A program made the translations under genes and the position numbers. Shown here piece after piece: positions 24 to 64,000 of a stretch of DNA of 64,000 nt. The notes beneath the pieces are model-generated. The model was not told the origin of the DNA, did not search any database, and saw nothing but the letters and a program-made list of their open reading frames with translations. The stretch lies in the IMG/VR virus record IMGVR_UViG_3300006116_000009. The stretch is one strand, 5' to 3'. This DNA is from an uncultured virus (IMG/VR IMGVR_UViG_3300006116_000009) (Duplodnaviria; Heunggongvirae; Uroviricota; Caudoviricetes). Numbering within the stretch: position 1 is the stretch's first letter; the number at the start of each line of letters is the position of its first letter.

Positions 24-2462
24 ATGGGCAACGCACTTCACGATTTCCAAAATGACCCCACCCTTAGTTCCGGTGAAAAAGAATACGCCGACGCTATGGT
101 GGCAACCTTTGACGGGGCATTTCCCCAAACCGTAAAGAAAGACTCGTTCACCCCACCACAGAACGTCCAAGCCGCTGCTAAGAAAGCATTGAAGTGGATG
201 AAAGACGGCAAGGCAGGTGACGGTTTCACCCCAGTGGGGCGCAAACGTGCGTCAGACCTAGCCAACGGTCACCCCGTGTCTATGGACACCCTAAAGCGTA
301 TGAAGGCGTACTTTGACCGCCACCAGCCCGATAAGAAATCACCACATTGGAACGAACCTAGCCCAGGCAAAGTTGCGTGGTATGCGTGGGGTGGCGACGC
401 TGGCTATGCGTGGGCGAAGCACATGGTTGCTAGTGCTGAAAGGGTGCAGAAAAGCGACGTAGAGGGACACCCTTTTCATGGCAACCAGTGGACAGGTGGT
501 GAAGGTTCGGCAGAGGGCGCACTACTCACGGGCGACCAAGTGAAATCCGCCATTATGTCCCCGCAAGGCATTGACAAATTCAATAGCATTATGTCAAAGC
601 AAGGGTATCTAACCTACCCAGTAAATCACCCCCTTTACGGTGGATGTGGCGTGGTTATGAAGGCACTACAGAACATCTATCCCAACGGCAAGCCCGTTGC
701 TATTGGTGAACCGATTACGCCAGAAGAGGGCGAGGACTACCCACCCATCTTCGTTCAGCACTACGCACTACAAATCGGTGAAGATAAGTTTGTGGACGGC
801 GCTGGCGTTCGCTCCCTTGCTGAAATCGCAAAGGGAAACGTACTGGGCAAGTATTGGCAAGTCTTACCGGCGACACCAGACCTAATGGGCAGGTTCCAGT
901 CCATTGCTACCTGCACCGACCAAGAAGCGAAGGACTACGCCAACGTCTTGTTGGAAACGGCGAAATCAGGTATCACCAAGAAACAATCCATCTCCCAAGT
1001 CGCCAATCAACTTTGGAACACGTACGTAGTGAAATCACTGCATAAGGGCAAGAAGCCCACCGCCGAACAACTACGGGCGCAAAGTCAGGACGCTTACGAC
1101 AAAGGCGACGAAGTAGAAGGTGACCGACTGCGCTACCTTGCCATCAACGCACAGTTTGAAGAAGACCAAGCCAAAATCACCAAAGGCGACAAAACTGGAC
1201 ATACATTTCACGGAAACCAATGGACAGGTGGAATCGGTGGCGCTGAAGGCGTAAGTGAAGCACGAACGTCAAGTGCTTCGGGTGGAAAGCGCACCACTTC
1301 CGTTGCCGACCAACCGTTGCCACAAGGGTGGAAAATCCAAAGTAAAACTAGTAGCGACATTACGTTGGTTAGCGAAAAAGGCAACACCGCCTGGTTTGCC
1401 ACCCGTTCCCGTGGTTGGAAACCAGGCGAACGTATTTCCAATATGGTTCTACAGTCCATTGACAAATTTGCCACCGGAAAGATTGTGAACTTCATAGCGG
1501 AATCTGGTATCGGTGGTGGAACAGTTGCTTACGTACACCGTTTACGTCCCGACGTTATTGGTATGGGCAAGTACAGCGTTGTCAATGAATCATTGGTAAA
1601 TCGTGCGAAATTCTATGGCAATACAATTTCTACCGGCGGAGTAATACCGCACGATATAGCGGTTCAGTTGGCGTTTGAGCGACACGACGTAATGCCCCTC
1701 AACGCTGAAGAACTAGCCGCACAGCACAGTGTTTTCAGTTCGTATCGTCAAGAAACGAACTACATTGACTTTGCCATGGCGCACGAAATTGGACACAGCG
1801 AGTATTTCACTAACCAACGAAGCGTCAAAGACCTTCTTCCAATCCTTGCCGAACTTTCACCAGATAAGGGTGGAGACCCCGAAAATAACCCCCACAGCAT
1901 TGAGTATTGGAATAAGGCGTACAAGGACAACTGTATGAACGCCCAATACCAAATCCCAAGTCGCTATACGGGCATAACCGTACAAGACGGACTGAAAACA
2001 ACGGTTATTCCAAAAAGGGACTGGGGTCAATTCCTATACGACCAAGGACGCTCCCCCGACCCAGGTGCTATGCCTGCTTCAGCAAAAACACGGTTGTCGG
2101 CACTAGGTGTCACGGAATACGGACGTGAGGACTTTGCCGAAATGTACGCCGAGATGTATGCCGCTTACCAATCACCACGAACTACGGACATTCCATTGGC
2201 TCAGGCATTTGCCAAAACGTTTGGGTGGACTAGAAGTGACCTTACTAAATCTGCTATACTGGGGTTAGTGAAGTCTAACCTTATCCCACCAGCAAACAAC
2301 AGAGTCACCCCTGACGGCAAGGGTGGCTTCAACGTTGCCGAGCCTTATGTGGTTGATACGGTCAATGGTCCCGTCACCGTTATTGGTGAATACGTAATCG
2401 TCAACGGTAAGCAAATGTTGATTGAGGATTACAACAAAATGCCTGTAAACCCTGATAAGTAA
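24..2462 (+). CDS. Multi-domain (polyvalent-type) phage protein, probably head-associated, with C-terminal zincin-like metallopeptidase; likely 5'-truncated by the window edge
   Basis: Frame is open from position 3. Contains a PP..V...A..AL.W...G..VGR.RA..LA.G..S.DT.KRM..YF.RH...PSPG.VAW..WGGDAG domain of the kind seen next to phage head genes, two GH[PT]FHGNQWTGG motifs, and AHEIGH (HExxH) followed by EYG..DFAEMYAE. Confidence 0.65.
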   Translation: MGNALHDFQNDPTLSSGEKEYADAMVATFDGAFPQTVKKDSFTPPQNVQAAAKKALKWMKDGKAGDGFTPVGRKRASDLANGHPVSMDTLKRMKAYFDRHQPDKKSPHWNEPSPGKVAWYAWGGDAGYAWAKHMVASAERVQKSDVEGHPFHGNQWTGGEGSAEGALLTGDQVKSAIMSPQGIDKFNSIMSKQGYLTYPVNHPLYGGCGVVMKALQNIYPNGKPVAIGEPITPEEGEDYPPIFVQHYALQIGEDKFVDGAGVRSLAEIAKGNVLGKYWQVLPATPDLMGRFQSIATCTDQEAKDYANVLLETAKSGITKKQSISQVANQLWNTYVVKSLHKGKKPTAEQLRAQSQDAYDKGDEVEGDRLRYLAINAQFEEDQAKITKGDKTGHTFHGNQWTGGIGGAEGVSEARTSSASGGKRTTSVADQPLPQGWKIQSKTSSDITLVSEKGNTAWFATRSRGWKPGERISNMVLQSIDKFATGKIVNFIAESGIGGGTVAYVHRLRPDVIGMGKYSVVNESLVNRAKFYGNTISTGGVIPHDIAVQLAFERHDVMPLNAEELAAQHSVFSSYRQETNYIDFAMAHEIGHSEYFTNQRSVKDLLPILAELSPDKGGDPENNPHSIEYWNKAYKDNCMNAQYQIPSRYTGITVQDGLKTTVIPKRDWGQFLYDQGRSPDPGAMPASAKTRLSALGVTEYGREDFAEMYAEMYAAYQSPRTTDIPLAQAFAKTFGWTRSDLTKSAILGLVKSNLIPPANNRVTPDGKGGFNVAEPYVVDTVNGPVTVIGEYVIVNGKQMLIEDYNKMPVNPDK

Positions 2463-2480
2463 GGGTTTTAGCAAAGACAC

Positions 2481-2509
2481 TTGCCTTATCCGTCACATTC
2501 GGGTAAACT
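2481..2509 (+). promoter_or_regulatory. Putative sigma70-type promoter
   Basis: TTGCCT-N17-TAAACT in the intergenic gap before the 2615 ORF. Confidence 0.4.
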
Positions 2510-2614
2510 AGGTCAACCCCAATGGGAAACCAAAGGAGGCGTTGTGTCCAACAACCCCAATGCTGTACGCCGTGTTTTTAGCGGTGGTTCGTATTCGCCT
2601 ATCAAGGCAGGCTT

Positions 2615-3154
2615 GTGCTAGGCACAGTGCGAGGTGGCTTCCTCGCACTGACAGTCGTAGTTTCGCTAGTGGTTAGCGTGTTCACCACGCACCCCACCGT
2701 GAAGCCCCACGTCCAAAAGCCCCACGTCTTAGTGGAACCGAAGTTCATCACCATCTTGTACTACGGCAGTTATCCCAAGCCCCACGCAAAGGTGTATCAC
2801 CCCAAGTTGCCGGTTCACCATCGGGCAATTCCAAAGCCCCGAATTGAATCCGTTTCTGCCCCAATGGGTTTGTTGCCACCGTCAAGTCGGGCTGGCTTCA
2901 CCTGCATTATGTGGCACGAATCACGTTCGACCCCAAAGGTGTTCAATCCCACCGCTTACAATGCTGAACAGGGCGCTGGTGGCATCTTCCAGTTCATTCC
3001 GTACATCTGGCAGTATGGGGCAAAGGCATTAGGTATCCCAACCGCCTACGCCCAGCAAGCAAGTATCACCGACCAATTCCGTGTTGCCGCTTTCTATTAC
3101 AAGCGCAACGGTGGTTTCTACCCCGAATGGGCTGGAGACTCGGCGTGTTTCTAA
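2615..3154 (+). CDS. Membrane-anchored lysozyme-like lytic transglycosylase (Rpf/SLT-like)
   Basis: N-terminal hydrophobic helix; Pro/His/Lys linker; C-terminal CIMWHES...AYN...GAGGIFQF...W...A.QAS..DQ matching the lysozyme-like catalytic Glu and G.FQF motifs. Confidence 0.75.
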   Translation: MLGTVRGGFLALTVVVSLVVSVFTTHPTVKPHVQKPHVLVEPKFITILYYGSYPKPHAKVYHPKLPVHHRAIPKPRIESVSAPMGLLPPSSRAGFTCIMWHESRSTPKVFNPTAYNAEQGAGGIFQFIPYIWQYGAKALGIPTAYAQQASITDQFRVAAFYYKRNGGFYPEWAGDSACF

Positions 3155-3193
3155 TTTCCATCTGGGGTGACTAAACCCTGCTAAGTTAGTAGG

Positions 3194-4291: not shown

Positions 4292-4301
4292 GCACAAGCA
4301 G

Positions 4302-4517
4302 ATGAACTTTGCCGAATGGCTTACATACGGGCAATCCCTTGGATACGTTAGTGAAATCGTGTGTGACACGCACAATGGATACGAAATGTCGCCCACCGAA
4401 GTAGAACTTGTTGATGCTGGAAATGACATCTGTGTCCACGTCGTCCGTGTTGGTAACATTCAGGAGTGGGAAGCCGAGGCGCAATCCTATAAAGGAATGG
4501 ACGAACTGTGCGTTTAG
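4302..4517 (+). CDS. Hypothetical protein
   Basis: ATG 10 nt after the MTase stop; CDTH...CVH residues. Confidence 0.6.
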   Translation: MNFAEWLTYGQSLGYVSEIVCDTHNGYEMSPTEVELVDAGNDICVHVVRVGNIQEWEAEAQSYKGMDELCV

Positions 4518-5452: not shown

Positions 5453-5458
5453 TAAACA

Positions 5459-7488: not shown

Positions 7489-8310
7489 ATGGCTCGCAAA
7501 CTAGTACGCCTTAGCATCAAGGAAACGTCGGGTGTTGACCACCCTGCGCACCTCCACGATGGTTGGGTCGTTATGAAGTCTGCAAACCCAGAAGAAGCAT
7601 CTGCCCTGCTTGACGAAATCCGTCCTACTGAAATCGTTGCCGAAGCACCCGTCGTTGAAAGCGTGGAGTTTGAGGCACCTGTGGTGGAAACCACGGAAAC
7701 GTTTGAGTTGGAAACCGCCAAGGCAGCAAACGCTGTTTTGGAAACCCTCAGTAATTTCAAGAAAGAAGAAATTATGTCACAGTTTTCTGCGATGGACACC
7801 GATGTGACCATCTACTCAGGGGCTGCGAGCGAGGCTGACATTTTGAAGGCTATGCCACAGGCTATCCGCAAGATGTTGGACGAGGCTTCGGCATCTGCCG
7901 AGGTTGCACTTCGTAAGGCTGCCGCTTCGGAAGCCGCCCTCATTGCCGAGCGTGAAGCCCGTGCTGATGAGGCTGCGGTTATCAAGGCTGCTGCTTGGTC
8001 GCACCTCAACATTGACCCCACCATTGTCGGCCCAGCGCTTCGTCGCCTTGCCGAGTCCGATGGCACCCTTGCTAACGAGGTTGTCAAGGCACTCGACAGT
8101 GCCAACGCCCTGATGGACGCTAACGCTGTCTTTACTGAAATCGGTTCAGACGCTGTTGTTCCTTCGGACGACGCTTTCTCAAAGATGGAAAACTTGGCTA
8201 AGGCCGCTGTTGCTTCTGGCACTGCCCCTTCGTTCGAGGCCGCTTTGATGTCAGTTGCGCAGTCGAACCCCGACCTGTACACGCAGTACCTCAACGAGAA
8301 GGCTCGATAG
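7489..8310 (+). CDS. Capsid scaffolding/assembly protein
   Basis: N-terminal I.ETSGVDHPAH...VVMKS segment resembling phage protease/scaffold N-termini; Ala/Glu-rich helices; F.EIGS; immediately upstream of the decoration and capsid genes. Confidence 0.7.
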   Translation: MARKLVRLSIKETSGVDHPAHLHDGWVVMKSANPEEASALLDEIRPTEIVAEAPVVESVEFEAPVVETTETFELETAKAANAVLETLSNFKKEEIMSQFSAMDTDVTIYSGAASEADILKAMPQAIRKMLDEASASAEVALRKAAASEAALIAEREARADEAAVIKAAAWSHLNIDPTIVGPALRRLAESDGTLANEVVKALDSANALMDANAVFTEIGSDAVVPSDDAFSKMENLAKAAVASGTAPSFEAALMSVAQSNPDLYTQYLNEKAR

Positions 8311-8313
8311 TCC

Positions 8314-9024
8314 ATGGCTTTTGAACAGAACCCATACGCTGTAAAGGTCACCCTTACGGCTGACAACTCGCTCAGCAGCACCATCACCAACGGCATTGTG
8401 TCTTCGTCGGCACAGTTCAAGTTCGTGAAGATTGCTGGCAAGACCGCTACCATCACCGGCAACGTTGTTTCCGGTACGACTTCCATCACCGGCGTTTCGT
8501 CGCTGGTCGGTGTAATCACTGGTGCCAACGTTTCTGGTACGGGTATCCCCTCGGGTGCCTTTATCACCAACGTGAACATCAGCGGTACGACGTACAGCAT
8601 CACGCTGTCTGCGCCTGCCACTGCTGCGCAGTCGTCTTGCACCTTGACGATTATCCCTTCGTCACAGCCTTACCAGAACGGCCCAGTCGCCACCGCAGTT
8701 TCGGCTTCGACTGACCGCCCAATCGGTATCCTTCAGAACCAGCCAATTACCAAGTTGACTTCCACCTCGAACGTGCAAAGTTTCTCAGAAGCCGAAGTCA
8801 CGATTTCTGGTGTGTCAAAGGTTATCGCTGGTGGCGTTGTTACCGCTGGTGACGCAATCACGATTGACTCGCAGGGTCGTGCTGTCACGGCGACGTTTGC
8901 CACAAGCACCACCTACGCCCCCAACTCCTACTTTGTACTCGGAACCGCTTTGACCCCCAGCACGGTTGCTGGCGACGTTATTACCGTCGCTGTTGCCGCC
9001 TCTGCTGCTGGTCGTGTGGCTTAG
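8314..9024 (+). CDS. Capsid cement/decoration protein with inserted beta module
   Basis: QFKFVK...PIGILQN.P...AEV..SG.SKV.AG..V.AGD.I..D..GRAV...G.AL.....GD.I.V pattern typical of DUF2190-like cement proteins; directly before the MCP. Confidence 0.7.
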   Translation: MAFEQNPYAVKVTLTADNSLSSTITNGIVSSSAQFKFVKIAGKTATITGNVVSGTTSITGVSSLVGVITGANVSGTGIPSGAFITNVNISGTTYSITLSAPATAAQSSCTLTIIPSSQPYQNGPVATAVSASTDRPIGILQNQPITKLTSTSNVQSFSEAEVTISGVSKVIAGGVVTAGDAITIDSQGRAVTATFATSTTYAPNSYFVLGTALTPSTVAGDVITVAVAASAAGRVA

Positions 9025-9046
9025 TCAGAAAGGCTAGTGAAATAAA

Positions 9047-10045
9047 ATGCCACAGCCATCAGTAAACAACGTTCACATTGACGCAATCTTGACCAACATC
9101 TCGGTTGCGTACTTGCAGAACACCAACAACTTTATTGCCGACAAGGTTTTCCCTGTGATTCCTGTTGACAAGAAGTCCAACCTGTACTTCAAGTACACCA
9201 AGGACGACTGGTTCCGTGACGAGGCTCAGCGTCGTGCTGACGGTACGGCTTCCGCTGGTTCAGGCTACGGTCTTACCACGGACACCTACCAAGCCGACGT
9301 GTTCGCCTTCCACAAGGACATTGGTGACCAGACCCGTGCTAACGCCGACAACCCCCTCAACCCTGACATGGAAGCGACCCAGTTCGTCACCCAGCGTCTG
9401 CTTCTGCGCCGTGAGGTTCAGTGGGCTACCGACTTTTTCCAAGCCGGTGTGTGGGGTACTGACGTAGTTGCCGGTGCCTACTCTTCGGGTGGCACCACTT
9501 ACGTCCCTGGTACGACTAGCACCATCAAGTGGTCGGACTACACCAACTCGCTTCCCATCGTGGACGTTGAGTACGCTAAGTACGCCGTGTTGCAGAACAC
9601 GGGCTACGAGCCTAACACCATGGTGTTGTCCTACCCCGTATTTCAGAAGTTGAAGGCTCACCCCACGCTGGTTGACCGCTACAAGTACACCCAAGCCGGT
9701 GCCATTGTCACCGAAGACCTGCTTGCGCAGTTGTTCGGTCTTGACCGTGTGCTGGTTGCCAAGGCAGTCGTAAACACGGCTGACGAGGGTGTCTCGAGCA
9801 ACTTCAACTTCACCGCCAACAACAACGCCCTGCTGTGCTACAGCGCACCTAACCCCGGTCTTATGACCCCCTCGGCTGGCTACACGTTCATGTGGACTGG
9901 CGTTTCGGGTGGTCTTGGTACGACTGTCGGTGTTAGCCGCTTCCGTATGGAAGAACTCAAGGCTGACCGTGTTGAAGGTGAAATTGCCTTCGACGACAAG
10001 GTTGTCGCTGCCGACCTCGGCTACTTCTGGAACAGCATTATCTAA
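9047..10045 (+). CDS. Major capsid protein
   Basis: 332 aa; HIDAILTNISVAY..FIAD.VFP..PV; PN..VL....L..HP; PSAGYTF; D.KVV..DLGY; strong codon bias; AGAAAGG SD; followed by a terminator. Confidence 0.9.
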   Translation: MPQPSVNNVHIDAILTNISVAYLQNTNNFIADKVFPVIPVDKKSNLYFKYTKDDWFRDEAQRRADGTASAGSGYGLTTDTYQADVFAFHKDIGDQTRANADNPLNPDMEATQFVTQRLLLRREVQWATDFFQAGVWGTDVVAGAYSSGGTTYVPGTTSTIKWSDYTNSLPIVDVEYAKYAVLQNTGYEPNTMVLSYPVFQKLKAHPTLVDRYKYTQAGAIVTEDLLAQLFGLDRVLVAKAVVNTADEGVSSNFNFTANNNALLCYSAPNPGLMTPSAGYTFMWTGVSGGLGTTVGVSRFRMEELKADRVEGEIAFDDKVVAADLGYFWNSII

Positions 10046-12057: not shown

Positions 12058-15000
12058 ATGGCACGTACACCGTACACACTGAATAGTTATGTAGGCGAAC
12101 CATACGCCGCTGTACTAACAACGTCTATTGGGTCTGCCGACACTACTATTTCACTAACCTTCAACGAAGGTATTGGCTCGTGGACGGGATTGGGTGTTGA
12201 CGGTGGTTTCTACCTTGCCATTGACTACAACATGGTCAGCGAAGAACACATTTACGTTCCGGCAGGGTCATACGATTGGGCAAGTTCTACCGTTGTACTA
12301 AATGATGTTGTTCGTGGATACGACAATGGTGGAAATGGCGTTCCTCACGATGCAGGTGTAGCGGTTGTTCCAATTATCACCGCAACAGATACACGGGAAG
12401 CCAACTACGTGGTATCCCAAACCGTTGGTCAAATCCAAAACTACGGCGACCTTCTTATCGGGGCTAGTGAAAACACCCTCGAGGCGTTGCCAATCGGAAG
12501 CCCTAATCAAGTATTAGGTGTTAGCCCAGACGGTTCTACATTGGAATACCTGACTGTCTACGGTCAGCAGGGGCCACAGGGAAACGATGGTGCGCAAGGT
12601 AGTGCTGGAAGCCAAGGAAACGCTGGGGCGCAAGGTGCGCAAGGCGTACAAGGCATTCAAGGTTCTATCGGTGTCCAAGGAGTACAGGGTAATCAAGGGG
12701 TACAGGGAAACCAAGGAACTACCGGATTTCAAGGCGTACAAGGTGTTCAGGGTAGTGCTGGAAACAGCGGTTCGCAGGGTACACAGGGAGTACAGGGAAC
12801 GACTGGTAGCCAAGGTAATCAAGGCACTACAGGGGCGCAAGGCAATCAAGGTTCAGCAGGCAATCAGGGTAATCAAGGGACGCAAGGCTCGCAAGGTAAT
12901 CAGGGTACACAGGGTACTGCTGGAACCAACGGGTCACAGGGTGTTCAGGGTGTTCAGGGTGCCACCGGCGTACAGGGTACACAAGGTTTTCAGGGAAATC
13001 AAGGTGACCAAGGGGCGCAGGGTTACCAAGGCGTAACCGGAACAACTGGTAATCAGGGTTTTCAGGGCTTGCAGGGAAACCAAGGTTTCACCGGCGTACA
13101 AGGAAATCAAGGTTTCACTGGTGCGCAGGGGGTACAGGGTGTTCAGGGAAACACTGGTTCACAGGGTACTCAAGGAAATCAGGGTTTTCAGGGAACACAG
13201 GGTATACAAGGAACGCAAGGTGTACAGGGTGTACAAGGTGAAAAAAGTGCCGCCAACGCCCACGCAGCCGTAAGTGCCGTTTCCACCAACAACTTGCCAG
13301 CGACTTACGCAAACGGAAGCGCAGACGCAGAAAACGGAACGGGTGTTGGGGCAACCATTACCGCAAATGCCAATGGCGCACTCGGGGCTATTGACGGTGT
13401 AGCAATGTCCGTTGGTAGCCGTGTTCTTTTCACTGCACGAACCAACGCCATTGAAAATGGCATTTACACGGTAACAAGTGTTGGCTCACCAGGTACCAAG
13501 TACGTCTTTACCCGTGCCACCGACTACAACAACCACGTCACGGGTCAGGTAGAAAGTGGCGACTATGTGTTTTCTACTGGCGGAACACTTTACGCAGGAA
13601 CAACGTGGGTTCAATACAATGATGGTTCCAACCCTGACGGAACAATCCGCATTGGAACAGACCCCATCAATTTCACGCAAGCAGGCGGTGTTGGTGCGCA
13701 AGGCCCACAGGGTGCCACTGGTTCGCAGGGCGCTGGCGGTGTTATCAGCAACTACGGTTCGTTTTACTCGACGGTAACCCAGAACGCCACTACTGGTGGA
13801 GCCGCAATCCGTTTTGACACTACCAACGTCGCCAATGGCGTGACCCTTGTTAGCAATGGAACATACCTAACTCGTATTACTTTCCCCACAACGGGAACGT
13901 ACATGATTGACTTCTCTGGTCAGTTAGCGGTCACGGGTGGAGGAAACCGCACCGCCAACTTCTGGCTAGTTAAAAACGGAACTACCGCTGTGGCAACCGC
14001 CTACGACAATGTTGTTCAGAACAACTCCCCAGCACTTACCTCGTGGACGTACCAAGTAAATGCCACGGCTGGCGACTACTACGAACTGTTTTGGAACGGT
14101 GATACAACTAACCTTCAACTTCAGTTCAGCGCCGCTTCCGCCCCCGTGCCTTCCGTTCCCTCGGCGTTTGTTCGTGTCACTCAAGTCACCTATCAGGGCG
14201 CACAGGGAAATCAAGGGTATCAGGGTACACAAGGGGTTCAAGGGGTACAGGGTTATCAGGGAACCCAAGGAACTCAGGGAAATCAGGGCTATCAAGGCTA
14301 TCAAGGTATTCAGGGGCCATCAAATGGCACTGCTGGTGGCGACCTTAGCGGAAACTACCCTAACCCCACCGTTGCCAAAATACAAGGGGTTGCGGTTTCC
14401 AATGTTGCCCCCACGAGCAACCAAGTGCTTCGCTACAACTCGTCCACCAATGCGTGGACACCGGCAACGTCTACGCTTCTTATTCCAACCACCACCAAGA
14501 CGGCAAACTATTCGGCAATTCCAAATGATTATGTCGTTTGCAATCCCACGTCGGCTGGCATCACCATTTCACTACCGTCGGCTCCGGCAAACGGTTCAGT
14601 AGTTTCGGTATGCAACCTTTCTACCGCTACACAAACTGTCACAGTAACTCCAAGTGGTTCAGACGTTATTTCGGGCGGTAGTTCCACCCTTGCCTACGGG
14701 TTTTTCAACTCCCGTTCGTTTGTCTACGACGCAAATAACACCACATGGTTGCTCCAAGTAGACGAGTGGGGAACTACGGCTGGTGGCGACCTTACGGGGT
14801 CGTATCCAAATCCCACTGTTGGTGGAATACAAGGCTTCCCCGTAGCCAATACAACGCCTACAAACAATCAAGTGTTGCGCTACAGCACTACTACGAACCA
14901 ATGGTCGCCAGCAACCTCGACGCTTCTTGTTCCAACGGTCACTACCAACGTCAGTTACAATGCTTTACCAAATGACTACGTAGTATGCAACCCAACAACT

Positions 15001-53595: not shown

Positions 53596-54069
53596 ATGGC
53601 GAATCCTTTTGACACCAAAGAACTACTGAAATACGCATCGGAAGAACGAATTGCTAAGGCAATTGTTATGAATTCCGACGCAGGACGGGCTATGGGTGTG
53701 CCTGACCGCCCAGCCACCAAAAGCGAATTAAAGGAAATGCACCGCCAAGACAGTGAGGCTGTTGACACCCACGCCCGAGCGCAAGCAAAGCACCAAGCAA
53801 AAGCCGATGCGGCTAGGGCAAGCGGTGGAATTGCAAGTAAGGCACTTGCCGCATTTCACGACCACGAAGCGAAGAAGCATGGTGAAAAACTTGCCGACGC
53901 ACAATCACGTCTTGGCGAAGTGAAGCAAGAACTGTCAAACCGTTTTGGTGTTTCTATGGAAAGAACCGAACGTCGGGAGGGGGCTGGCATTACCCCTCCA
54001 TCAAGCGGAAGCGGTAGGGGAGCAAAGTTAGGTCACCCATTCTACGGAAATCAACACCAAGACGGTTAG
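53596..54069 (+). CDS. His/Ala-rich protein of the GHPFxGNQ family
   Basis: MANPFDTKELL leader, IAKA, His-spaced helices, C-terminal GHPFYGNQ. Confidence 0.75.
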   Translation: MANPFDTKELLKYASEERIAKAIVMNSDAGRAMGVPDRPATKSELKEMHRQDSEAVDTHARAQAKHQAKADAARASGGIASKALAAFHDHEAKKHGEKLADAQSRLGEVKQELSNRFGVSMERTERREGAGITPPSSGSGRGAKLGHPFYGNQHQDG

Positions 54070-54071
54070 TT

Positions 54072-54614
54072 ATGACCAAACAAAAAACGTACTGCGCCGT
54101 AAACCTCCACGTTAGTGAAATCAAGCGAGGCATGACGGGTTTCGCCAAGACCGACGGAACAATGGGTGCGCTTATTCGCTTTGGTGAAAAGTTGCGTTGG
54201 AAAGTTGGAAAGTACAACCACTGCTTCACCGTTGTCACCGAAGGGTCAAACTATGACGAAATAATTATTGTCCAAGCGACAATGAAGGGCGTAATTACCT
54301 CCACTTTGGAAAGCCTTATCGCTTCGTCAGAAATCGTGTCTATGTACGACATTACCGACCTTGGTGGCGACCTCGAAAAAGCGGCGTGGTTTGCCGAGCA
54401 ACAAATTGGCGACCCCTATGGGCTTTTGTCCGACATTTGCATCGGTGTGGACATTATTTCACCACAGTGGTTTTTGGAAACTCGCCGTGCAGGTACGTGG
54501 ATTTGTTCAGCACTAGCCCACGAAGCAATGCGTTACGCCGGTGTGTACTACGACGTGCCTGACGTGTACATGGTTTCACCAACCAACTTGCAAATTTTGA
54601 TGAACGTTGCTTGA
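54072..54614 (+). CDS. Permuted papain-like (NlpC/P60 YiiX/YaeF-type) amidase
   Basis: IR...YNHC...A...GV...A..QIG.PY...ICSAL, with His before Cys. Confidence 0.75.
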   Translation: MTKQKTYCAVNLHVSEIKRGMTGFAKTDGTMGALIRFGEKLRWKVGKYNHCFTVVTEGSNYDEIIIVQATMKGVITSTLESLIASSEIVSMYDITDLGGDLEKAAWFAEQQIGDPYGLLSDICIGVDIISPQWFLETRRAGTWICSALAHEAMRYAGVYYDVPDVYMVSPTNLQILMNVA

Positions 54615-55329: not shown

Positions 55330-55812
55330 GTGACCTGTATAGCCGCTTGGAAAGACCGTAAGCAAGTGTGGATGGCTGGGGACGGTGGCGCATTTGACGA
55401 CACCACGGTCATTATTTCGGCAGAACCAAAGGTTTGGAAATCCGATACAAGTTTGGTTGGCGTAGCCGGTTCGTTCCGAATAATGGACATTCTTCGGAAA
55501 AGCAATATTGGCGACCCGTACAAAATCCGTGATTTTCTTATTAGCAAGTCTAACGAAGCAATTTTCCCTACTGACTGGTCAGTGTTGGTAGCCAATAAAA
55601 CGGGCATTTACGAAATAGGTTCCGATTTTGGCGTAGTGAAATCCGCCGAGAACTATGGGGCTACGGGGGCTAGCGCACAGTCAGCACTAAGCGCATTGTT
55701 TGTATTGGAACGTAAAGACGTGACACCACAGCAACGTATGGAATTAGTGATGAAAGCAACGGGCTACCACACCACAAACTCACGCCCACCTTTTACAGTT
55801 ATTTCGCTATGA
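55330..55812 (+). CDS. Ntn-hydrolase, HslV/proteasome-beta-like peptidase
   Basis: N-terminal MTCIA, MAGD, PKV, GVAGS, Y.ATG. Confidence 0.7.
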   Translation: MTCIAAWKDRKQVWMAGDGGAFDDTTVIISAEPKVWKSDTSLVGVAGSFRIMDILRKSNIGDPYKIRDFLISKSNEAIFPTDWSVLVANKTGIYEIGSDFGVVKSAENYGATGASAQSALSALFVLERKDVTPQQRMELVMKATGYHTTNSRPPFTVISL

Positions 55813-57286: not shown

Positions 57287-60200
57287 ATGCCTAGTTACCC
57301 GTTACTTGCAAATGCCGTTCGTGCTTTAGCCAATCAAGATGATGGCGCAGTTCGACGTGACGGTGTTGGCTTCAACGGTGGGGATACCAAGTTTGGCAAT
57401 CGCCTAGCCCAAGTACCAGACGAAGCGTGGTCGCCAGAAATGGCACTAGAAGCGTGGCAGATGCTGGGTAAGTACCGTGAGCAACTGCAACGGATAGGCA
57501 TTGACTTTAGCAAAGTCCCTGAACCAATCGTGTCCGAAAAATCAAAGGCTATTGCACGTGGTGTTAAGGCAGTAGACATTAGAAACAATCACGTGGTGGT
57601 GTTTATCCCCTACGGTGAGCCACTGTACCCTAAAGTCCCCCTGACCGCAGTATGGAACCGTGACATCAAAGGCTGGGTCGTAGCAAAGGAAAAGTACGGC
57701 GCAGTATTGGGCTGGGCTGAAAAGAACAAAGTGCCGGTATCTGACCGTGCCAAAGAATTTCTAGGCAAAGTACCGCCAATAGAAAATGCCAAATGGAATG
57801 GTGAAGTAGTTTTAGAAAAAGGGCAACTTGTAATCAGGTTTGACTACAACGTAGAAATCCTTGATTCCGTCCGTAGCCTAAGCCAACGTCATTACAACGC
57901 CGAAGACAAAACGTGGTCTACCCCAAAAGAAAACGTAATGGCAGTCAAGGAATTGGCAGCGAAGCACCAACTTTTCCTGACCGAAGATGTCAAGCGATTG
58001 CACGGCGAAGAAATCAAACCTTGCCCCAAGATTGGCGTGTTGCATGACAAATTTGCCATCACCTTCAACTACCAATCAAACATGGTCAGCGAAATTAGGC
58101 AGATGCCTGGGTCTGTGTGGTCACCAGACGAACGTGTTTGGGTTATCCCTGTAGAAAGTGTCCAAGAAGTAAGGGATTTCGTCACCAAGCACGAAGTTGA
58201 AATTTCCAAAGATGCGGAACTGTTGTTTATCGAAGCAGACACGGTGGCAGAAATTATCGAGTCATCACAGGCGCACGATGCCGACATTGACATCAAGGGG
58301 TTTGGTGACGAGCAGTACAAATTGTTCCCGTTCCAACGTGCCGGTGTTGCTTACGCTATGCAAGCAATGGGATACGAACACCACGAAGGCGAATGGAAGC
58401 AAAACACGCCAACCACTGGTGGCGTACTTGTAGGCGACGAAATGGGATTAGGTAAGGCGCAGGTTCACGGAACAAAAGTTCTTACGCCTAAGGGCTGGAC
58501 AAACATTGAGAACTTATCGGTTGGCGATGAGGTGATTGGGTCTAACGGACACGCCACAAAAGTCACGGGAGTATTCCCTCGTGGCGAAATGGATGTGTTC
58601 ACCGTTGGCTTCAATGACGGTTCAACCTTAGACGTATCGGGCGACCACCTATGGGCAGTTCAGAGTGTCCAAAACGGATACCGTAAGCCCGACGAATGGC
58701 AAGTTAGAGATACTAACTACCTCGCAGAAAATCTCATAGACGGCGCTGGCAACTCAAAATGGAAAATCCCATTAGTTCAGCCTGTTTACTTTGAGGGCAA
58801 CGAACCGCTACCAATTGACCCTTACCTTTTAGGAGTGCTGTTGGGTGACGGTTGTTTAGGCGGTGCGAGCATAAGTGTCACATCAGCAGATGAATTTATT
58901 ATTGAGGAAGTCAAAAAGCGTATACCTGAGGGTATGGGTATGACTAAGCACGGCGAATACGACTATCGCCTTGTATCACCAAGGGCAGGTCTGCCAAATG
59001 AACTAGGGCGCACGCTAAGTAAGTTGGGGCTTCGCCTAGGGTCTGGCGAAAAGTTTATTCCCGAAATGTACTTACGCTCAACGCCCGAAAACCGCCTTGC
59101 CCTGTTGCGTGGTCTAATGGACACTGACGGATTTGCCGGTAAAGACGGAACGAACGAGTTTGTAAGCATTAGTAAAGACCTTGCTGATGGGGTGACGGAG
59201 TTGGTTCAAAGTCTCGGCGGTGTAGTGCGCCGTAGCACTAAGCAACCTACAAAAAACGGTGCTGATTACGGTCAGTTGGCGTATCGGGTAAATATAAAGT
59301 TGATGGACTGTCCATTCTTTATGCCACGCAAAGCAAATGATTGGGTCAAGCCAACCAAGTATCCACCTAACCGAAACATAAAGTCAATTACGCCCAATGG
59401 TCGTGGGCAGGTGACTTGTATTGCCGTGGAAGCACAAGACCACTTATACGTCACAGAGCATTACCTAGTGACGCACAACACACCGCAGGGTCTAGCCATT
59501 GTCAAAGCGGCTAATGCTTTTCCAGCAGTCATAGTCGTCCCAGCCAGCCTGAAACTGAACTGGGAACGGGAAGCCAAGCGTTGGATAAAGGGCGTGAAGG
59601 TAGCCGTTCTAGGTGGCACTACGGGCGAAGTACCCGAAGCCGAAATCTACGTCATCAACTACGACGTACTTACCCATTGGGTGGATAAATTTCCACATAT
59701 CAAGGCATTGGTCTTGGACGAAAGCCACTACATCAAGAACGGGTCAGCACAGCGTTCCAAAGCGTGTGTACGCCTGTCGGACAAGGTGGTCGAGGGTGGC
59801 ATACGTGTCTGCCTATCAGGGACACCTATCGTCAATCAGCCCACGGAAATCATCACCCAACTACGGGTTATCAACCGTCTAGATGAATTCGGTGGTGCGA
59901 CTAAGTTTCGCAACACCTATGGTAGTGCTAGTGGTCGAAGCCTTGCCGCCCTGAACCGCAAACTACGTTCCACCTGTTACGTTCGTCGCCGGAAAGCCGA
60001 CGTGCTAACTGAACTGCCCCCAAAGCGTTGGTCGCAAGTGTTCGTCGAAGGCAACGCCAAGGTGATGAAGGAATACCGTGAAGCGGAAGCAGACATTGTA
60101 AATTACCTAGCCGACCTAGCACGGGAAATTGCATTGGAATCGGGCGCAACGGATAAAGAAGCACAAAACGAAGCGTGGCGCAAAGCACTAAAGGCTCGAG

Positions 60201-60772
60201 CCGCCGAACAGTTGGTTGCTATTTCCACCTTGAAGCAGTTAGCCGCCAAAGCCAAAATGGAAGCCGCCCGTGAATGGATTGACAACTTTGTAGATGGCGA
60301 TAAGAAGTTGGTGGTGTTTGGTTGGCACCGTTCAGTCGTAAATGAAATTGCCGACAACTTTAGCAACGGCGTGAAAATTCAAGGTGGGCTAACCCCCGAA
60401 AAGCGTCAAGAAGCCGTGGACGCATTCCAAAACGACGACAAACAAAAAGTGATTGCTTGCAATATCAAAGCCGCTGGGGTTGGACTTACGCTAACTGCCG
60501 CTAGTGATGTGTTGTTCCTCGAGCAAGGGTGGACACCAAGTGACATGGAACAAGCAGTAGACCGTTGCCACCGTATCGGTCAGCAAGACAGCGTGACTGG
60601 TTGGCTTATGTTGTGCGCTAACACCATTGACGAAGACATTGCCGTACTGATTGACAACAAGCGTTCTATCGTAGACCGTGCCATTGACGGGTCAAATGAT
60701 GACGAAGAAGAAGCACGTTCTATTGTGGGCGACTTGTTGGTAAGTCTGGCAGAACGTGGACTAAATCGGTAA
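57287..60772 (+). CDS. SNF2/SMARCAL1(HARP)-like helicase/ATPase containing an intein
   Basis: Repeated F.Y.....IR......W.....W HARP-like domains; DEMGLGK/T; DESH; LSGTP; GVGLTLT; QAVDRCHRIGQ. Confidence 0.9.
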   Translation: MPSYPLLANAVRALANQDDGAVRRDGVGFNGGDTKFGNRLAQVPDEAWSPEMALEAWQMLGKYREQLQRIGIDFSKVPEPIVSEKSKAIARGVKAVDIRNNHVVVFIPYGEPLYPKVPLTAVWNRDIKGWVVAKEKYGAVLGWAEKNKVPVSDRAKEFLGKVPPIENAKWNGEVVLEKGQLVIRFDYNVEILDSVRSLSQRHYNAEDKTWSTPKENVMAVKELAAKHQLFLTEDVKRLHGEEIKPCPKIGVLHDKFAITFNYQSNMVSEIRQMPGSVWSPDERVWVIPVESVQEVRDFVTKHEVEISKDAELLFIEADTVAEIIESSQAHDADIDIKGFGDEQYKLFPFQRAGVAYAMQAMGYEHHEGEWKQNTPTTGGVLVGDEMGLGKAQVHGTKVLTPKGWTNIENLSVGDEVIGSNGHATKVTGVFPRGEMDVFTVGFNDGSTLDVSGDHLWAVQSVQNGYRKPDEWQVRDTNYLAENLIDGAGNSKWKIPLVQPVYFEGNEPLPIDPYLLGVLLGDGCLGGASISVTSADEFIIEEVKKRIPEGMGMTKHGEYDYRLVSPRAGLPNELGRTLSKLGLRLGSGEKFIPEMYLRSTPENRLALLRGLMDTDGFAGKDGTNEFVSISKDLADGVTELVQSLGGVVRRSTKQPTKNGADYGQLAYRVNIKLMDCPFFMPRKANDWVKPTKYPPNRNIKSITPNGRGQVTCIAVEAQDHLYVTEHYLVTHNTPQGLAIVKAANAFPAVIVVPASLKLNWEREAKRWIKGVKVAVLGGTTGEVPEAEIYVINYDVLTHWVDKFPHIKALVLDESHYIKNGSAQRSKACVRLSDKVVEGGIRVCLSGTPIVNQPTEIITQLRVINRLDEFGGATKFRNTYGSASGRSLAALNRKLRSTCYVRRRKADVLTELPPKRWSQVFVEGNAKVMKEYREAEADIVNYLADLAREIALESGATDKEAQNEAWRKALKARAAEQLVAISTLKQLAAKAKMEAAREWIDNFVDGDKKLVVFGWHRSVVNEIADNFSNGVKIQGGLTPEKRQEAVDAFQNDDKQKVIACNIKAAGVGLTLTAASDVLFLEQGWTPSDMEQAVDRCHRIGQQDSVTGWLMLCANTIDEDIAVLIDNKRSIVDRAIDGSNDDEEEARSIVGDLLVSLAERGLNR
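58457..59479 (+). mobile_element. Class 3 intein with LAGLIDADG homing endonuclease (341 aa)
   Basis: Inserted in Walker A (GLGK|AQVHGT...VTHN|T); starts with Ala; W (HLW), C (VTCIAV), T (VTHN) signature; LLGVLLGDG and LLRGLMDTDG motifs. Confidence 0.9.
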
Positions 60773-60997
60773 TTACTTACCGGAAATGCTTAGGGCGTAA
60801 GTCGTAGCCTGTTGCGCCCTAGCCTTTAGCAACGGGGCATCAGGACTACCATTCGCCTGTGACACGGCAAGTCGTTTCCAAAGTTCGCTGGCATCAGCAA
60901 GGGCTTTAGCAATACGGGCGTACTGCGAAGAAGCGTATTCTTCACCCTCAAAACGGTCAGTCAGCAGGGCGCTGGTAGTGAAATCAGGCGTTGGCAA
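60773..60997 (-). CDS. Small protein with F[ST]TxxL leader
   Basis: AGGAGG SD before TTG; MPTPDFTTSALL...IAKA. Confidence 0.65.
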   Translation of the reverse strand: MPTPDFTTSALLTDRFEGEEYASSQYARIAKALADASELWKRLAVSQANGSPDAPLLKARAQQATTYALSISGK

Positions 60998-61400
60998 CGG
61001 AGCCTCCTGTGGTCACACCCGTCACGGGGGTCGAGTCGTTCATCACCATAGCATTTGCCGATTGCGAAGCGTCAGCAGCAGCCTGAGTTGCCCCTCGAGC
61101 GTTCAGCCCGTCAGTTTTGGAATTCTCGGTTGCTGCGTGTTCGTGCAAGTCAGCAGCGTGGTTATTCATTTCGGCATACTTGGGGTTGGTCTTGGCAAAT
61201 GCTTGCGCCACCTTACGGTGTTCCTCCGCCAATCGCAAGTGCGTTTCTTTCCTAGCCTTCATGTCTTGTTTGCTAGAAATGTTGTGGGCATCAGTAGCCA
61301 ACAACGCCAACTTTTGCCCTTCAGCAGTGTGGCGTGGCAAGGCGTGGTTCTTTGGATACCGAGACTTACCCTTGAGTAATGCTTCGGTAGTGAAATCCAT
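60984..61400 (-). CDS. His/Ala-rich helical protein with leader
   Basis: MDFTTEALLKG; H..LA.EH...HAA.LH..AA. Confidence 0.75.
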   Translation of the reverse strand: MDFTTEALLKGKSRYPKNHALPRHTAEGQKLALLATDAHNISSKQDMKARKETHLRLAEEHRKVAQAFAKTNPKYAEMNNHAADLHEHAATENSKTDGLNARGATQAAADASQSANAMVMNDSTPVTGVTTGGSVANA

Positions 61401-61954
61401 TAGTACCCAGTGGCAAATAAGGCTTCGTTGTACCCTTGACGTGACATAACAAACGCACGGTGGCTAGCAAGCCAAGCGTCCTTGATAGGGCTGTCCCAAT
61501 CGGGAATACGAATGTTGTCACGGTCAGAATTGGAATTCTGGTGGCGATTGTCAGTACTGAAATCCACAGCCTGTGGACTACCAGCGACGTTCTGCATACA
61601 AACCTTTGACGCTTGCAAGTGTGCGCCGTAAGCATCACCATGTGCCGAAACAGCCTTGACGTTGCTAGCAGGGTTGGCGTTCTTCATGTCTTGCGCAAGT
61701 TGGTAGTGGGCTTGCGCCAAGGCATTGTGTAGTTGCGCCATGCTGGTGTAGTCATCAGCACTAAGGGGGGCAGACTGACCAAAATGTGCCGATTCTTGTT
61801 GGTCGGAAATCAACCCAGCCTGACGGTACAAATCAGCGGAACGAAGGGCAAAAGGGTTGTTAGTAGCCATACCAGCAGGGGTAAACGAAGGTAGATAGTT
61901 GAAGTCACTGGAACCCTTTGTAATGTTTTCTGGTGAAAAACGGTTATTGTTCAC
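61400..61954 (-). CDS. His/Ala-rich helical protein with leader
   Basis: GGAAGG SD; MNNNRFSPENITKG; HNALAQAH...AHGDAYGAH. Confidence 0.75.
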   Translation of the reverse strand: MNNNRFSPENITKGSSDFNYLPSFTPAGMATNNPFALRSADLYRQAGLISDQQESAHFGQSAPLSADDYTSMAQLHNALAQAHYQLAQDMKNANPASNVKAVSAHGDAYGAHLQASKVCMQNVAGSPQAVDFSTDNRHQNSNSDRDNIRIPDWDSPIKDAWLASHRAFVMSRQGYNEALFATGY

Positions 61955-62003
61955 GGATTTCCTTCCCTGCGTATCGCTACAAATCTACACCCACATTTAG
62001 AAA

Positions 62004-62846
62004 TTAGTCAGTTCGCACTTGCTTTAGGGCTTCGTTCTTTGCCTTATCAGCCTGCTGTGACATTTCCAATGCGTTTTGTGATGCTTTTTTGTTATTTCCA
62101 TACGTAACGTCAGCCTGTGGTTTCCAACCACCCTCGACTTTGGAAGTGGAATAAGCGTTCTGGTCTGCGGCGTTCCCTGCGGTGAAATGGGCTTGTGCCG
62201 CTTGACGGTTGATAACGGCAGCGTTAGTTAGGGTGCGTGATAAATCATTTTCACCACCGCCATTATTGGCACGGGCAATAGACGCTTGTAGTTCTAGCCC
62301 TTCGGCAACACCACGATGTTCGTGTGCCAAAGTCCAATGGACACCAGCAATAGCCTTTAGGTTGGGGTGTGGATTGGTCACGGGGGTGTCGTAGTACCCA
62401 AGTACCTGTTCGGCATCAGGGGCAAGGTCAGGGTCAATAAATTGCCCCTTGTTGATTACTGCTTGGTTGGCGGCATTCGTAAAATTGGCAGCCCGTGACG
62501 AATACTGTTGGGCTTTTTGCGAAGTTAGGGCATTGGAAGCAATTGAATTACCCGTGACGGGGCGAATGGCGTTTATTTCACTAGCCGCATCGTCGTGGGC
62601 TTGCGCTGCTTCCAAATGTGCTTGTTTAGCCTTACCAGACGGTAACTTGCTAGCAATAGCCCTATGTTCACTAGCAATCTTGCGGTGTGTTTTCACCGTG
62701 TTGGGCAAATCATCTTCCAGCGTTTCCCGAAGCCCATTGGCTTGACCAGAAAGGGCTGCTGACTGTTGGTTTATCCCAACGCCTAGTTTGGAAACGGGAT
62801 ACCGTGACAGCGACTTTAGAAGTTCTGAGGTAGAAAACCCAGACAT
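62004..62846 (-). CDS. His/Ala-rich helical protein with leader and two internal repeats
   Basis: MSGFSTSELLKS; H..[IL]A.EHR..A...AAQAH twice, separated by INKG. Confidence 0.8.
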   Translation of the reverse strand: MSGFSTSELLKSLSRYPVSKLGVGINQQSAALSGQANGLRETLEDDLPNTVKTHRKIASEHRAIASKLPSGKAKQAHLEAAQAHDDAASEINAIRPVTGNSIASNALTSQKAQQYSSRAANFTNAANQAVINKGQFIDPDLAPDAEQVLGYYDTPVTNPHPNLKAIAGVHWTLAHEHRGVAEGLELQASIARANNGGGENDLSRTLTNAAVINRQAAQAHFTAGNAADQNAYSTSKVEGGWKPQADVTYGNNKKASQNALEMSQQADKAKNEALKQVRTD

Positions 62847-63295
62847 TAGTACTTCTTACTGCGATACGCCCCTACGCCACCAGCGCCAGCGTCAGGAATA
62901 CCGTTTTCGTGGTCGTACTTTTCTGCTTCCCACGTTGCCTTAGCAGCCTTACGTGGCGTAAAGTGGGTCACTTTTTCAGCAGGGGTAGTCTTTCGCTCCC
63001 CAGCACCACCAGATGAAATAAAGTGTTCGAGAAATGCCTTGCGATGCAGTGCTTCACCAACTTTGTCGCCACGAACACGGGCTGCGACTTCGGCGGATTT
63101 GTGATGTGACAGCATGATGTCATGCTGACGTTCAAATTCGCCAGCCTGCTTAGCGTTAAAGTTCGGCATTGAGTCTTTGTCATCAGAAATACTTTGCGCC
63201 TTGTCAGTCCACTGATTTCCCTCAAATGGGTGACCGACCACAGCCCCCTTTGTCAAGGGATATAAAAGACCGTTGGTAGAAAAGTCATGCGTCAT
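62846..63295 (-). CDS. GHPFxGNQ-family protein
   Basis: MTHDFSTNGLLYPLTKG-AVVGHPFEGNQWT. Confidence 0.8.
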   Translation of the reverse strand: MTHDFSTNGLLYPLTKGAVVGHPFEGNQWTDKAQSISDDKDSMPNFNAKQAGEFERQHDIMLSHHKSAEVAARVRGDKVGEALHRKAFLEHFISSGGAGERKTTPAEKVTHFTPRKAAKATWEAEKYDHENGIPDAGAGGVGAYRSKKY

Positions 63296-63350
63296 AAAAC
63301 AAGGATACCAACGAATACCAAAATCCTAAATGTGGTTTATTATGGGCGGT

Positions 63351-63884
63351 ATGACTAGCAACCCTTTCTCCACCGAAAACCTTGTTCCTACTTGGGCGGT
63401 CGCTAGTGAAATCTTGAAAGGCGACACACAAGGACACCCATTTCGAGGCAATCAGTTCACCCACGCCGATGCCATTGACATGGAAAAGGACGCTCAGCAG
63501 TCGCTTGACGAGGGACACAAGAACTACGTAAGCGCCGACGATTACGAGGGTGAAGATGACACCACAGTCCCCTACGGCGACACGTATGTTTCTCTCGGCG
63601 GAGGCGGCGCATGGGAGGGTCACAACGACGATGTAGCCGAAAACGCTAGAAAATTTGAGGACGCCGCCGGTGGTTTTAGGGACGCTGCTGAAATTCACTT
63701 GGGGTTGGCTTCTCGAGCGACGAACGCCAATGACGCTATTTTCCACACCAACGAAGCGCACCGCCTAAATCGAGCCGCTGATAGTGCGGAAGAATACATG
63801 GACGACCAAAATGACCAAAAAGTTTCTGACCCAGATGAACCTACTTTTGACCCACCAGATTACGACTACGACCCCTACTACTAA
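63351..63884 (+). CDS. GHPFxGNQ-family acidic protein
   Basis: MTSNPFSTENLVPTW...ILKG-DTQGHPFRGNQFT. Confidence 0.8.
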   Translation: MTSNPFSTENLVPTWAVASEILKGDTQGHPFRGNQFTHADAIDMEKDAQQSLDEGHKNYVSADDYEGEDDTTVPYGDTYVSLGGGGAWEGHNDDVAENARKFEDAAGGFRDAAEIHLGLASRATNANDAIFHTNEAHRLNRAADSAEEYMDDQNDQKVSDPDEPTFDPPDYDYDPYY

Positions 63885-63899
63885 GTAGTGAAATAACTA

Positions 63900-64000
63900 A
63901 TGACAAATCCATTTGACACAAACAATCTTGTTCCTACGTGGTCTAATACTGGAAAAATCTTGAAGGGCGACTTTAACGGACACCCTTTCCATGGAAACCA
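63900..64000 (+). CDS. GHPFxGNQ-family protein, truncated by the window end
   Basis: Manual translation MTNPFDTNNLVPTWSNTGKILKGDFNGHPFHGN(Q); not in the ORF track. Confidence 0.8.
   Translation, partial: MTNPFDTNNLVPTWSNTGKILKGDFNGHPFHGN

Follow-up and report, generated by a model that had tools for sequence, protein, structure and literature searches.

A short conserved header in front of modules of head-associated proteins in an uncultured phage and its relatives

Among described systems, the capsid targeting sequence of phage T4 and the N-terminal signal of DarB in phage P1, as set out in the portion of PMC9024508 used here, are the closest precedents for the element treated in this study. 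That element is a short conserved peptide, which we call the header, recurring in the genes of an uncultured virus of the class Caudoviricetes (IMG/VR record IMGVR_UViG_3300006116_000009); the whole stretch of 64,000 nucleotides (nt) analyzed is referred to below as the window. As with the header, the T4 system of capsid targeting sequence and gp21 places a short N-terminal leader on unrelated injected head proteins (IPI–III and Alt); there the leader is removed at a short motif, whereas cleavage at the header would be the corresponding step (PMC9024508, same portion). In P1, according to the same source text, the first 30 residues of DarB direct a reporter to the capsid and are enough to load this giant anti-restriction protein (PMC9024508). 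For the DarB signal, in contrast to the header, neither repetition nor occurrence in several lineages is known. The T4 site spans three residues, is confined to T4-like phages and also occurs in capsid and scaffold proteins, while the header has 13–21 residues, is near-invariant across unrelated lineages, is repeated in polyproteins, and is absent from capsid and scaffold of the window. Encapsulin cargo-loading peptides, which are short, conserved, mostly C-terminal and attached by a flexible linker, bind the shell protein and load unrelated enzymes into an HK97-fold shell; the header likewise joins a conserved short peptide to unrelated cargo by way of a flexible tether, but its carriers have shells of different families.

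Polyvalent proteins of phages and conjugative elements are thought to be packaged and injected, and processing by their own peptidase modules has been proposed (Iyer, Burroughs, Anand, de Souza and Aravind 2017, PMC5512222). As far as the part of that text drawn on here goes, header carriers resemble them in being giant chains with ART, InPase, LPD, PBECR, ParB, MuF and zincin modules, encoded with head genes. They differ in three respects: no short linker motif turned up in a look-up of terms in the same text; the header had 0 matches in the 72,556 plasmids searched, and we therefore regard it as specific to the phage branch of polyvalent proteins; and a zincin, the processor proposed in the portion cited, is present in the form found in the window in only 3 of 29 carrier records. 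MuF-fused polymorphic toxins (Jamet et al. 2017, PMC5576092) similarly join a MuF head protein to exchangeable C-terminal toxin modules, but a term search of that text gave no mention of a junction motif, and the phages it treats, in the passages covered, are prophages of cultured bacteria, where the header is nearly absent.

In the phage described here, the header heads the modules of a polyprotein encoded near a MuF gene and at least three small proteins with short helical leaders, while in one gene (ORF B below) the core of the motif is C-terminal. With a probability of about one half, we read the header as a combined packaging and processing signal for capsid-carried, host-injected modules of head-associated polyvalent proteins; that it is cleaved we infer.

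Copies in the window and header anatomy

A first-pass annotation, made from the letters of the window, had reported six copies of a recurrent peptide in five genes. A six-frame scan with translations reproduced all six, in coordinates and in peptide, as GH.F.GN matches at 465, 1197, 54031, 63432 and 63978 on the plus strand and at 63212–63235 on the minus strand. The count of genes also stands, i.e., copies 1 and 2 share one open reading frame (ORF) and the remaining four lie in one gene each. Six occurrences of GH-x-F-x-GN in the window compare with 0.03 expected from residue frequencies, and 300 mononucleotide shuffles of the window gave 4 matches summed over all shuffles. Since the 27-nt cores of the six copies, with pairwise identities of 59–91%, differ mostly at synonymous positions, the motif is conserved at the protein level while its codons vary, as first proposed. 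The relevant features of the window are as follows (aa, amino acids).

3..2462 (+): ORF A, 5'-open; last 819 aa of a 2,242–2,251-aa head-associated polyvalent protein, with two of its seven headers in the window
135..452 (+): DUF5872/phrog_2859-like basic domain preceding header 1 (phrog_2859 E 3.6e-35, residues 45–150)
444..506 (+): header copy 1, V-Q-K-S-D-V-E-GHPFHGNQWTGGEG (six-frame scan, translation)
1176..1238 (+): header copy 2, I-T-K-G-D-K-T-GHTFHGNQWTGGIG (six-frame scan, translation)
1317..2234 (+): zincin-like module after header 2, with HEIGH at 1782–1796
7489..10045 (+): headerless genes for the phrog_13547 protein, a scaffold (phrog_673) and the major capsid protein (phrog_1005)
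53596..54069 (+): ORF B; NPFDT-type N-terminus, degenerate core GHPFYGNQH at 54031–54057, 4 residues from the stop
62846..63295 (-): ORF C; 16-residue leader MTHDFSTNGLLYPLTK, header at 63194–63256, then a 121-aa module
63351..63884 (+): ORF D; leader MTSNPFSTENLVPTWAVASEILK, header at 63411–63473, then an acidic 142-aa module
63900..64000 (+): ORF E, 3'-open (carrier gene 63900..>64000); leader MTNPFDTNNLVPTWSNTGKILK, header cut by the window end, continuation seen in contig L083

In five of the six copies a Lys stands exactly five residues ahead of the Gly of GH (K-[GS]-[DA]-x-x-GH), in agreement with the spacing first noted; the copy at 54031 lacks K-G-D and is degenerate. The modules flanking the six copies were likewise described as unrelated, and the best match among them in an all-against-all BLASTP had E = 0.026 over 58 aa. 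This unrelatedness is qualified by an N-terminal leader, M-x-NPF-[DS]-T, which ORFs D and E have in common with the start of ORF B, and by a Gly-rich tail common to copies 1 and 2.

Beyond the window, we described the header from 193 distinct contexts in viral contigs and from 584 profile-detected instances in 153 proteins. The motif is the core of a linear header of about 21 residues, hydrophobic(-7)-x-[K/L/A/F](-5)-G-[D/E]-x-x-G-H-x-F-[R/H]-G-N-Q-[W/Y/H]-T-x-G-x-G, followed by a Gly/Ser-rich tether. Among the 584 instances, position -7 is hydrophobic, position -5 is K in 62%, L in 19%, A in 9% and F in 5%, position -4 is G in 99% and position -3 is D or E in 96%. The core then runs G (99%), H (100%), P (46%) or E (28%), F (100%), H (53%) or R (42%), G, N and Q (100% each), W (49%), Y (39%) or H (9%), T (63%), any residue, G (65%), any residue, G (57%). 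Core invariance is partly a matter of ascertainment because the searches required or rewarded the core, whereas positions -7, -5, -4, -3, +9, +11 and +13 were not required by them. Across the 193 contexts, conservation falls to background beyond -8 and +14, with helix-forming residues (A, L, E, R, K) upstream and G/S-rich sequence downstream; the header is thus not part of a larger shared domain, membership in which would have spoken against the first-pass view. A loss of fixed spacing in homologues, which would also have spoken against it, was not seen either, as the -4 and -3 frequencies show for positions up to -5. What did not hold is the Lys as a fixed element of the motif, given its frequency of 62%; on the same ground we rejected the idea of a Lys–Asn isopeptide bond.

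The residue at -5 is uniform within a protein and variable between proteins (pair identity 0.74 within a protein vs 0.32 pooled), and so is the R/H position (0.82 within vs 0.47 between proteins). This uniformity fits either a lineage-specific reader of the upstream part or concerted evolution. AlphaFold 2 (AF2) gave the header no structure, with a predicted local distance difference test (pLDDT) score of 24–37 beside the zincin-like module and, for the header alone with 148 aligned sequences, no secondary structure and a predicted template modelling score of 0.14. By these models the header is without a fold of its own and behaves as a short linear motif. DNA binding, an early suggestion, is not favoured, the peptide being roughly neutral with acidic residues flanking it. 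Two side observations concern variation in the header itself. Among more than 560 instances, positions +2 and +4 co-vary: P is paired with R 194 times, and E is paired with H 124 times, which yields the spelling H-E-x-x-H; a metal site of this type cannot be general, because the commonest form, H-P-F-R (194 instances), lacks that spelling. In some copies (L005, L014, L058, L111; P0079, P0115), K-G-D-x-x gives way to a different upstream sequence, K-G-G-x-G-S-G-A-[QE]-x-GH.F.GNQ.

Carriers, downstream modules and phage restriction

Pattern search and a catalogue of the downstream domains, as the first-pass annotation had recommended, showed that carriers hold polyvalent modules and head-assembly domains. 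Pfam matches were collected from 46 long carrier ORFs, from 19 top polyproteins together with 12 ORFs of the relative contig L187, and from the ORFs of contig L185 and of metagenome-assembled genomes (MAGs). Head anchors within header-bearing frames included Phage_portal, Phage_portal_3, Portal_Mu, Phage_Mu_F and an XkdF protease with DUF6496, the last as XkdF-DUF6496-header fusions in L002 and L034; Akkermansia and Luteolibacter MAGs showed the architecture Portal_Mu, header, PBECR2. The exchangeable modules on carriers comprised ADP-ribosyltransferases (ART-PolyVal, ADPrib_exo_Tox, DRAT), kinase types (Zeta toxin kinase, HipA/PI3K-like kinase), DNA or nucleotide modules (topoisomerase IB, ParB_N, NUDIX, InPase, pentapeptide repeats), further enzymes (GNAT, an Acb1-like phosphoesterase), and modules of polyvalent type or unknown function (LPD3, PBECR2, DUF3626, DUF7178, DUF6321, DUF5872). 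Polyvalent signature domains (ART-PolyVal, InPase, LPD3, PBECR2, Phage_Mu_F) thus occur in header-bearing relatives, while the window itself has only the HExxH module, for which Pfam has no match. In the complete relative G009, the portal gene is followed by MuF-header and the XkdF protease; then come two header proteins, phrog_13547, the scaffold and the capsid protein, and last a header protein of the leader type. Overall, the header is tied to head-assembly genes. The proposal that it tags virion-delivered effectors survives in part: carriers are of the type expected for virion delivery, i.e., polyvalent chains fused to or beside portal, MuF and head-protease genes, whereas the Lys on which the proposed cleavage rested is conserved in only 62% of instances. 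As a separate observation, the close relative L187 has a Dps/ferritin-like gene (15495–15938, -) among header-tagged small genes upstream of its polyprotein.

The header has a direction. In 53 of 107 ORFs, no more than 45 aa separate the first header from the earliest possible start, while the last header comes that close to the stop in 1 of 74, namely ORF B of the window; one further ORF, in L091, ends right after G-N-Q. Of the 150 best proteins, about 70 open with a leader of 6–40 residues and the header, whereas only 2 have a header no more than 10 aa from their end; from header to header the median spacing is 211 aa. Three ORFs start directly with M-G-D-x-x-G-H, each preceded closely by an in-frame stop and by a plausible ribosome-binding site, and these leaderless ORFs encode, after the start Met, an N-terminus resembling the one that a cut after -5 would leave. 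Comparisons between relatives place module boundaries at the header as well. Positions 1–495 of the window are 81.6% identical in DNA to L187 and the two then diverge, the motif of header 1 lying at 465–494; the module after header 1 is found as a free-standing gene behind a different leader in L117 (86% identity); and alignments of zincin-type modules, with L061 and with a paralogue in the same polyprotein, begin 7–9 residues before header 2. Because homology between relatives breaks at headers, each header is inherited with the module downstream of it. The header thus stands in front of modules and moves together with the one behind it.

A profile of 148 headers (36 columns), run against 1.84 billion representative proteins, matched 2,456 protein clusters at E ≤ 1e-3, of which 490 reached ≤1e-10 and 105 reached ≤1e-30, with up to 9 copies per protein. 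All 28 long viral records searched had the header, with 1–25 copies per record, and a back-translated pattern found at least 165 stretches in IMG/VR. Among 596 Gb of prokaryote species genomes there were 10 stretches, all in MAGs and 5 of them with the full context, vs about 4 expected by chance from our own arithmetic. For cultured phages (50,697 records, short-peptide tblastn), the sole match was Xanthomonas phage Rb1. Its header, with G-D-F-S-G-H, is placed near residue 740 of a 1,221-aa “internal head protein”, whose gene has as neighbours a DarA-N-like gene, a metallopeptidase gene and one for a 2,238-aa ATPase. The DarA-N-like and ATPase genes are a point of resemblance to P1; between the DarB signal and the header we claim no likeness in sequence. 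Three cultured phages with the phrog_1005 capsid family (Arthrobacter phages Ottawa and Waltz, Vibrio phage 1.112.O) gave 0 of 3 matches with a query that matched 28 of 28 carriers. The header is therefore found almost only in phages, and almost exclusively in uncultured viral contigs, and in the full text open to search (bioRxiv supplements and papers without a CC licence lay outside its scope) the motif appears in no paper. At the upper end of the copy numbers stands G008 (L171–L174, 21–48 kb), a 69-kb viral contig of 69% G+C. Its 25 headers are spread over giant ORFs that together take up about 26 kb, more than one third of the contig. A different use of the core may exist in cells: Kofleriaceae MAG contigs (L177, L178, L179 and L183; 39–207 kb) encode proteins of 280–410 aa (stop to stop) that open with M-P-R...Q-G-N-Q-x-GHPFYGNQW followed by Arg/Asp-rich low complexity, which are without the K-G-D context and match no Pfam family.

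The window genome gene by gene

By Pfam and PHROGs matches, the window is a siphovirus-like phage genome with scaffold, major capsid protein, connectors, tail tube, tape measure and replication/recombination genes. It has no close DNA relative among the 50,697 phage records, and its capsid protein reaches at most 51.5% identity, to Arthrobacter phage capsid proteins. About 10 kb of the genome of this phage falls outside the window. ORF A is 100% identical over 819 aa to residues 1433–2251 of an ORF in metagenome contig L185, in which GH.F.GN occurs at residues 243, 542, 858, 1037, 1233, 1587 and 1831. Pfam identifies a PI3/PI4-kinase-like domain, DUF3626 and GNAT on the full L185 ORF; with the DUF5872-like (phrog_2859) domain and two zincin-like modules, the full ORF A combines several unrelated domains, as polyvalent proteins do. 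Upstream of it, L185 has a 380-aa two-header gene, a MuF gene and a DUF5872-plus-header gene; the polyprotein of this phage is thus closely preceded by MuF. Because L185 extends ORF A to seven headers and shows further header genes upstream, this phage has at least 14 header copies.

Within ORF A, the succession of phrog_2859-like domain and header recurs in L049, L061 and L078, and DUF5872 matches are found in relatives. In the zincin-like module, an alignment of seven sequences shows H215, E216, H219, a downstream A-E pair and Y-G to be invariant (numbered in the folded segment, which starts at ORF A residue 380). Its AF2 core has pLDDT 60–90; it belongs to no Pfam family and had no PDB fold match at E ≤ 0.001, the weak metalloprotease rows not being meaningful.

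ORF B, which matches no Pfam or PHROG family, starts with MANPFDT as in ORFs D and E, yet the core stands at its C-terminal end, 145 residues further on. We considered whether a frameshift might fuse ORF B with the gene that follows (54072–54614, +) and set this aside: the -1 frame of that gene runs through the motif without a stop, but no slippery site is apparent. That gene has a weak C92 papain-like amidase match and a crotonase-like PHROG match, and a HslV-family peptidase gene lies at 55330–55812 (+); both peptidase-like genes are conserved in G015 and G020 and have no match in the other carriers.

Matches of ORF C to L120, L108 and L107 cover the leader and header only, and those of ORF D at 9 other loci (BLASTP) extend from residue 1 to 36–65 only, again leader plus header. 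Full-length relatives of ORF D numbered 3 among 5.8 billion proteins, in a word-indexed search too insensitive for a short motif, and an ESM Atlas look-up returned no usable match for it. A headerless leader-like N-terminus, MDFTTEALLKGKSRYP, resembling the DF[ST]T..LL..YP leader of ORF C, occurs at 60984–61400 (-). Given leader-like N-termini without an adjacent header there and at 53596–53670 (+), the leader may be a signal separate from the header.

Three other large genes of the window are recorded for completeness: a tail-fibre-like protein of 1,861 aa, rich in collagen triple-helix repeats and also containing a StcE-type beta-sandwich (12058–17643, +); a single headerless ORF of 4,415 aa directly after the tape-measure gene (30725–43972, +); and a SNF2-type helicase of 1,161 aa (57287–60772, +) split by an intein-like insert, with Hint and LAGLIDADG homing-endonuclease matches at about residues 390–670, between the SNF2 N-domain and Helicase_C.

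Packaging, processing and rival explanations

Under the packaging-and-processing reading, some partner would recognize the header during head assembly as a signal for both steps, the chain would be cut just upstream of G(-4), where residues are lineage-specific, and release of each module within the capsid would leave the invariant G-D...G-N-Q-W peptide as the module's N-terminus, on a flexible tether; the module would then be delivered to the host together with the DNA. A search for the partner by co-occurrence and BLASTP found no protein, whether protease, capsid or other, common to all carriers. The capsid family phrog_1005 occurs in 13 of 28 carrier records and phrog_13547 in 9 of 28; a hidden protease in the phrog_13547 protein was considered and rejected, as it has no sequence relative in the PDB and looks helical and scaffold-like. 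In five further genomes, S78 was found in 2 (one below the cut-off), ClpP and S49 in 0, and S77 in 0, with the S77 control also without a match, which leaves the S77 count uninformative. When headers were masked in eight carrier genomes and all ORFs compared by BLASTP, each ORF had matches in at most 4 of the remaining 7, and the overlap of G008, G016 and G019 with the rest was limited to a few cargo modules. A complex prediction for the G009 XkdF and the header segment of the neighbouring gene scored 0.01, which weighs neither way.

Several observations weigh against this reading. XkdF, in which His and Ser are invariant, is present in 11 of 29 carrier records and so far from universal, and the zincin module is rarer still (see above). 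No head-maturation protease family was detected in the 59 ORFs of the window against PHROGs (34 of them also against Pfam), and the near-complete carriers G016, G019 and G023 have no Pfam-detectable S78, S78_2, ClpP or S49. The window frames of phrog_13547, scaffold and capsid protein contain no GH.F.GN match in the six-frame scan, i.e., capsid and scaffold are without the header; the copy in ORF B is C-terminal with nothing behind it; and Rb1 is the only cultured carrier found. Giant head proteins such as P1 DarB can also be packaged uncut. Finally, near-invariance of eight residues across lineages sharing no head proteins is unlike a lineage-specific protease site.

In one rival account, the header is purely a cutting site for a head protease, as T4 L/I-x-E or the phiKZ-like site, that removes leaders and separates modules while the peptide has no later role. 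Its attractions are that XkdF-type proteases are modules beside or within header proteins in the 11 records named above, that a weak S78-like match lies inside the G008 header polyprotein, that -5 is lineage-specific, and that short N-terminal leaders are typical of protease-processed head proteins in T4 and P1 (PMC9024508, in the portion cited). We think it unlikely, as such a site would have to keep at least 13 conserved residues, eight of them about 100% invariant, across lineages with different portals and no common head proteins, to work where no protease is detectable (the window, G016, G019 and G023), to spare capsid and scaffold, and to persist in leaderless M-G-D...G-H proteins with nothing upstream to remove. 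Those leaderless copies sit more easily with an uncut docking or tether peptide, whereby chains stay whole and headers bind the inner wall, portal, tail channel or DNA to load, order or eject cargo, much as encapsulin peptides do. Its anatomy of linear motif and flexible Gly-rich tether, the occurrence of headers at N-terminal, internal and occasionally C-terminal positions, and the phrog_1005 capsid family in 13 of the 28 records would all suit such a role. It is likewise doubtful, however, since cultured phages of that capsid family are without the header (0 of 3), carriers of other lineages are without phrog_1005 and have no common head protein at BLASTP level, a near-neutral peptide with acidic neighbours is poor for DNA binding, and a fusion to portal or MuF would need no docking tag.

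Invariance across unrelated phages would be explained, without any shared phage-encoded partner, if the header were a self-processing element (an Asn-dependent break at G-N|Q helped by the His) or a site read by a conserved host enzyme after injection. H, N, Q and two Gly are at 100% in the 584 instances, no such partner emerged from the 8 genomes, and several complete carriers have no detectable protease. Asparagine-lyase cuts do occur in virus capsid maturation. Yet a 13-residue peptide without a predicted fold, alone or beside a module, is unlikely to act as a catalyst, a cut would bring no benefit to copies at the very N- or C-terminus, and with a universal host enzyme cultured phages should carry the header, whereas 1 of 50,697 records does at the sensitivity used; we consider this improbable. 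Least probable is a passive joint, i.e., a hinge kept mainly as a safe recombination point for module swaps with no specific reader. The breaks in homology between the window and its relatives at the header, the reshuffling of modules among lineages sharing little else, and the Sak4-like annealase and Gam-like proteins encoded by the phage are in its favour, but it would not hold eight residues invariant at the protein level while the 27-nt cores drift to 59–91% identity, and it leaves the strong N-terminal bias and the restriction to head-associated proteins unexplained. A bolder possibility, which we hold only tentatively and consider less likely than not, is that the header is a portable, lineage-independent capsid-cargo code, such that a module behind it is loaded, freed and injected by unrelated heads through a common reader or self-processing. 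Such a code would explain the free movement of modules and headers between lineages sharing no other genes.

Because the header is near-invariant across phages sharing no head proteins, we regard it as more than another protease site. If it marks capsid-carried proteins, the 36-column profile would flag thousands of candidate injected effectors in metagenomes (anti-defence enzymes, toxins, DNA mimics), most modules of which belong to no known family. On the same condition, the header would also offer a testable handle on how phages load and release their internal proteins, and possibly a tag for packaging foreign proteins into phage heads.

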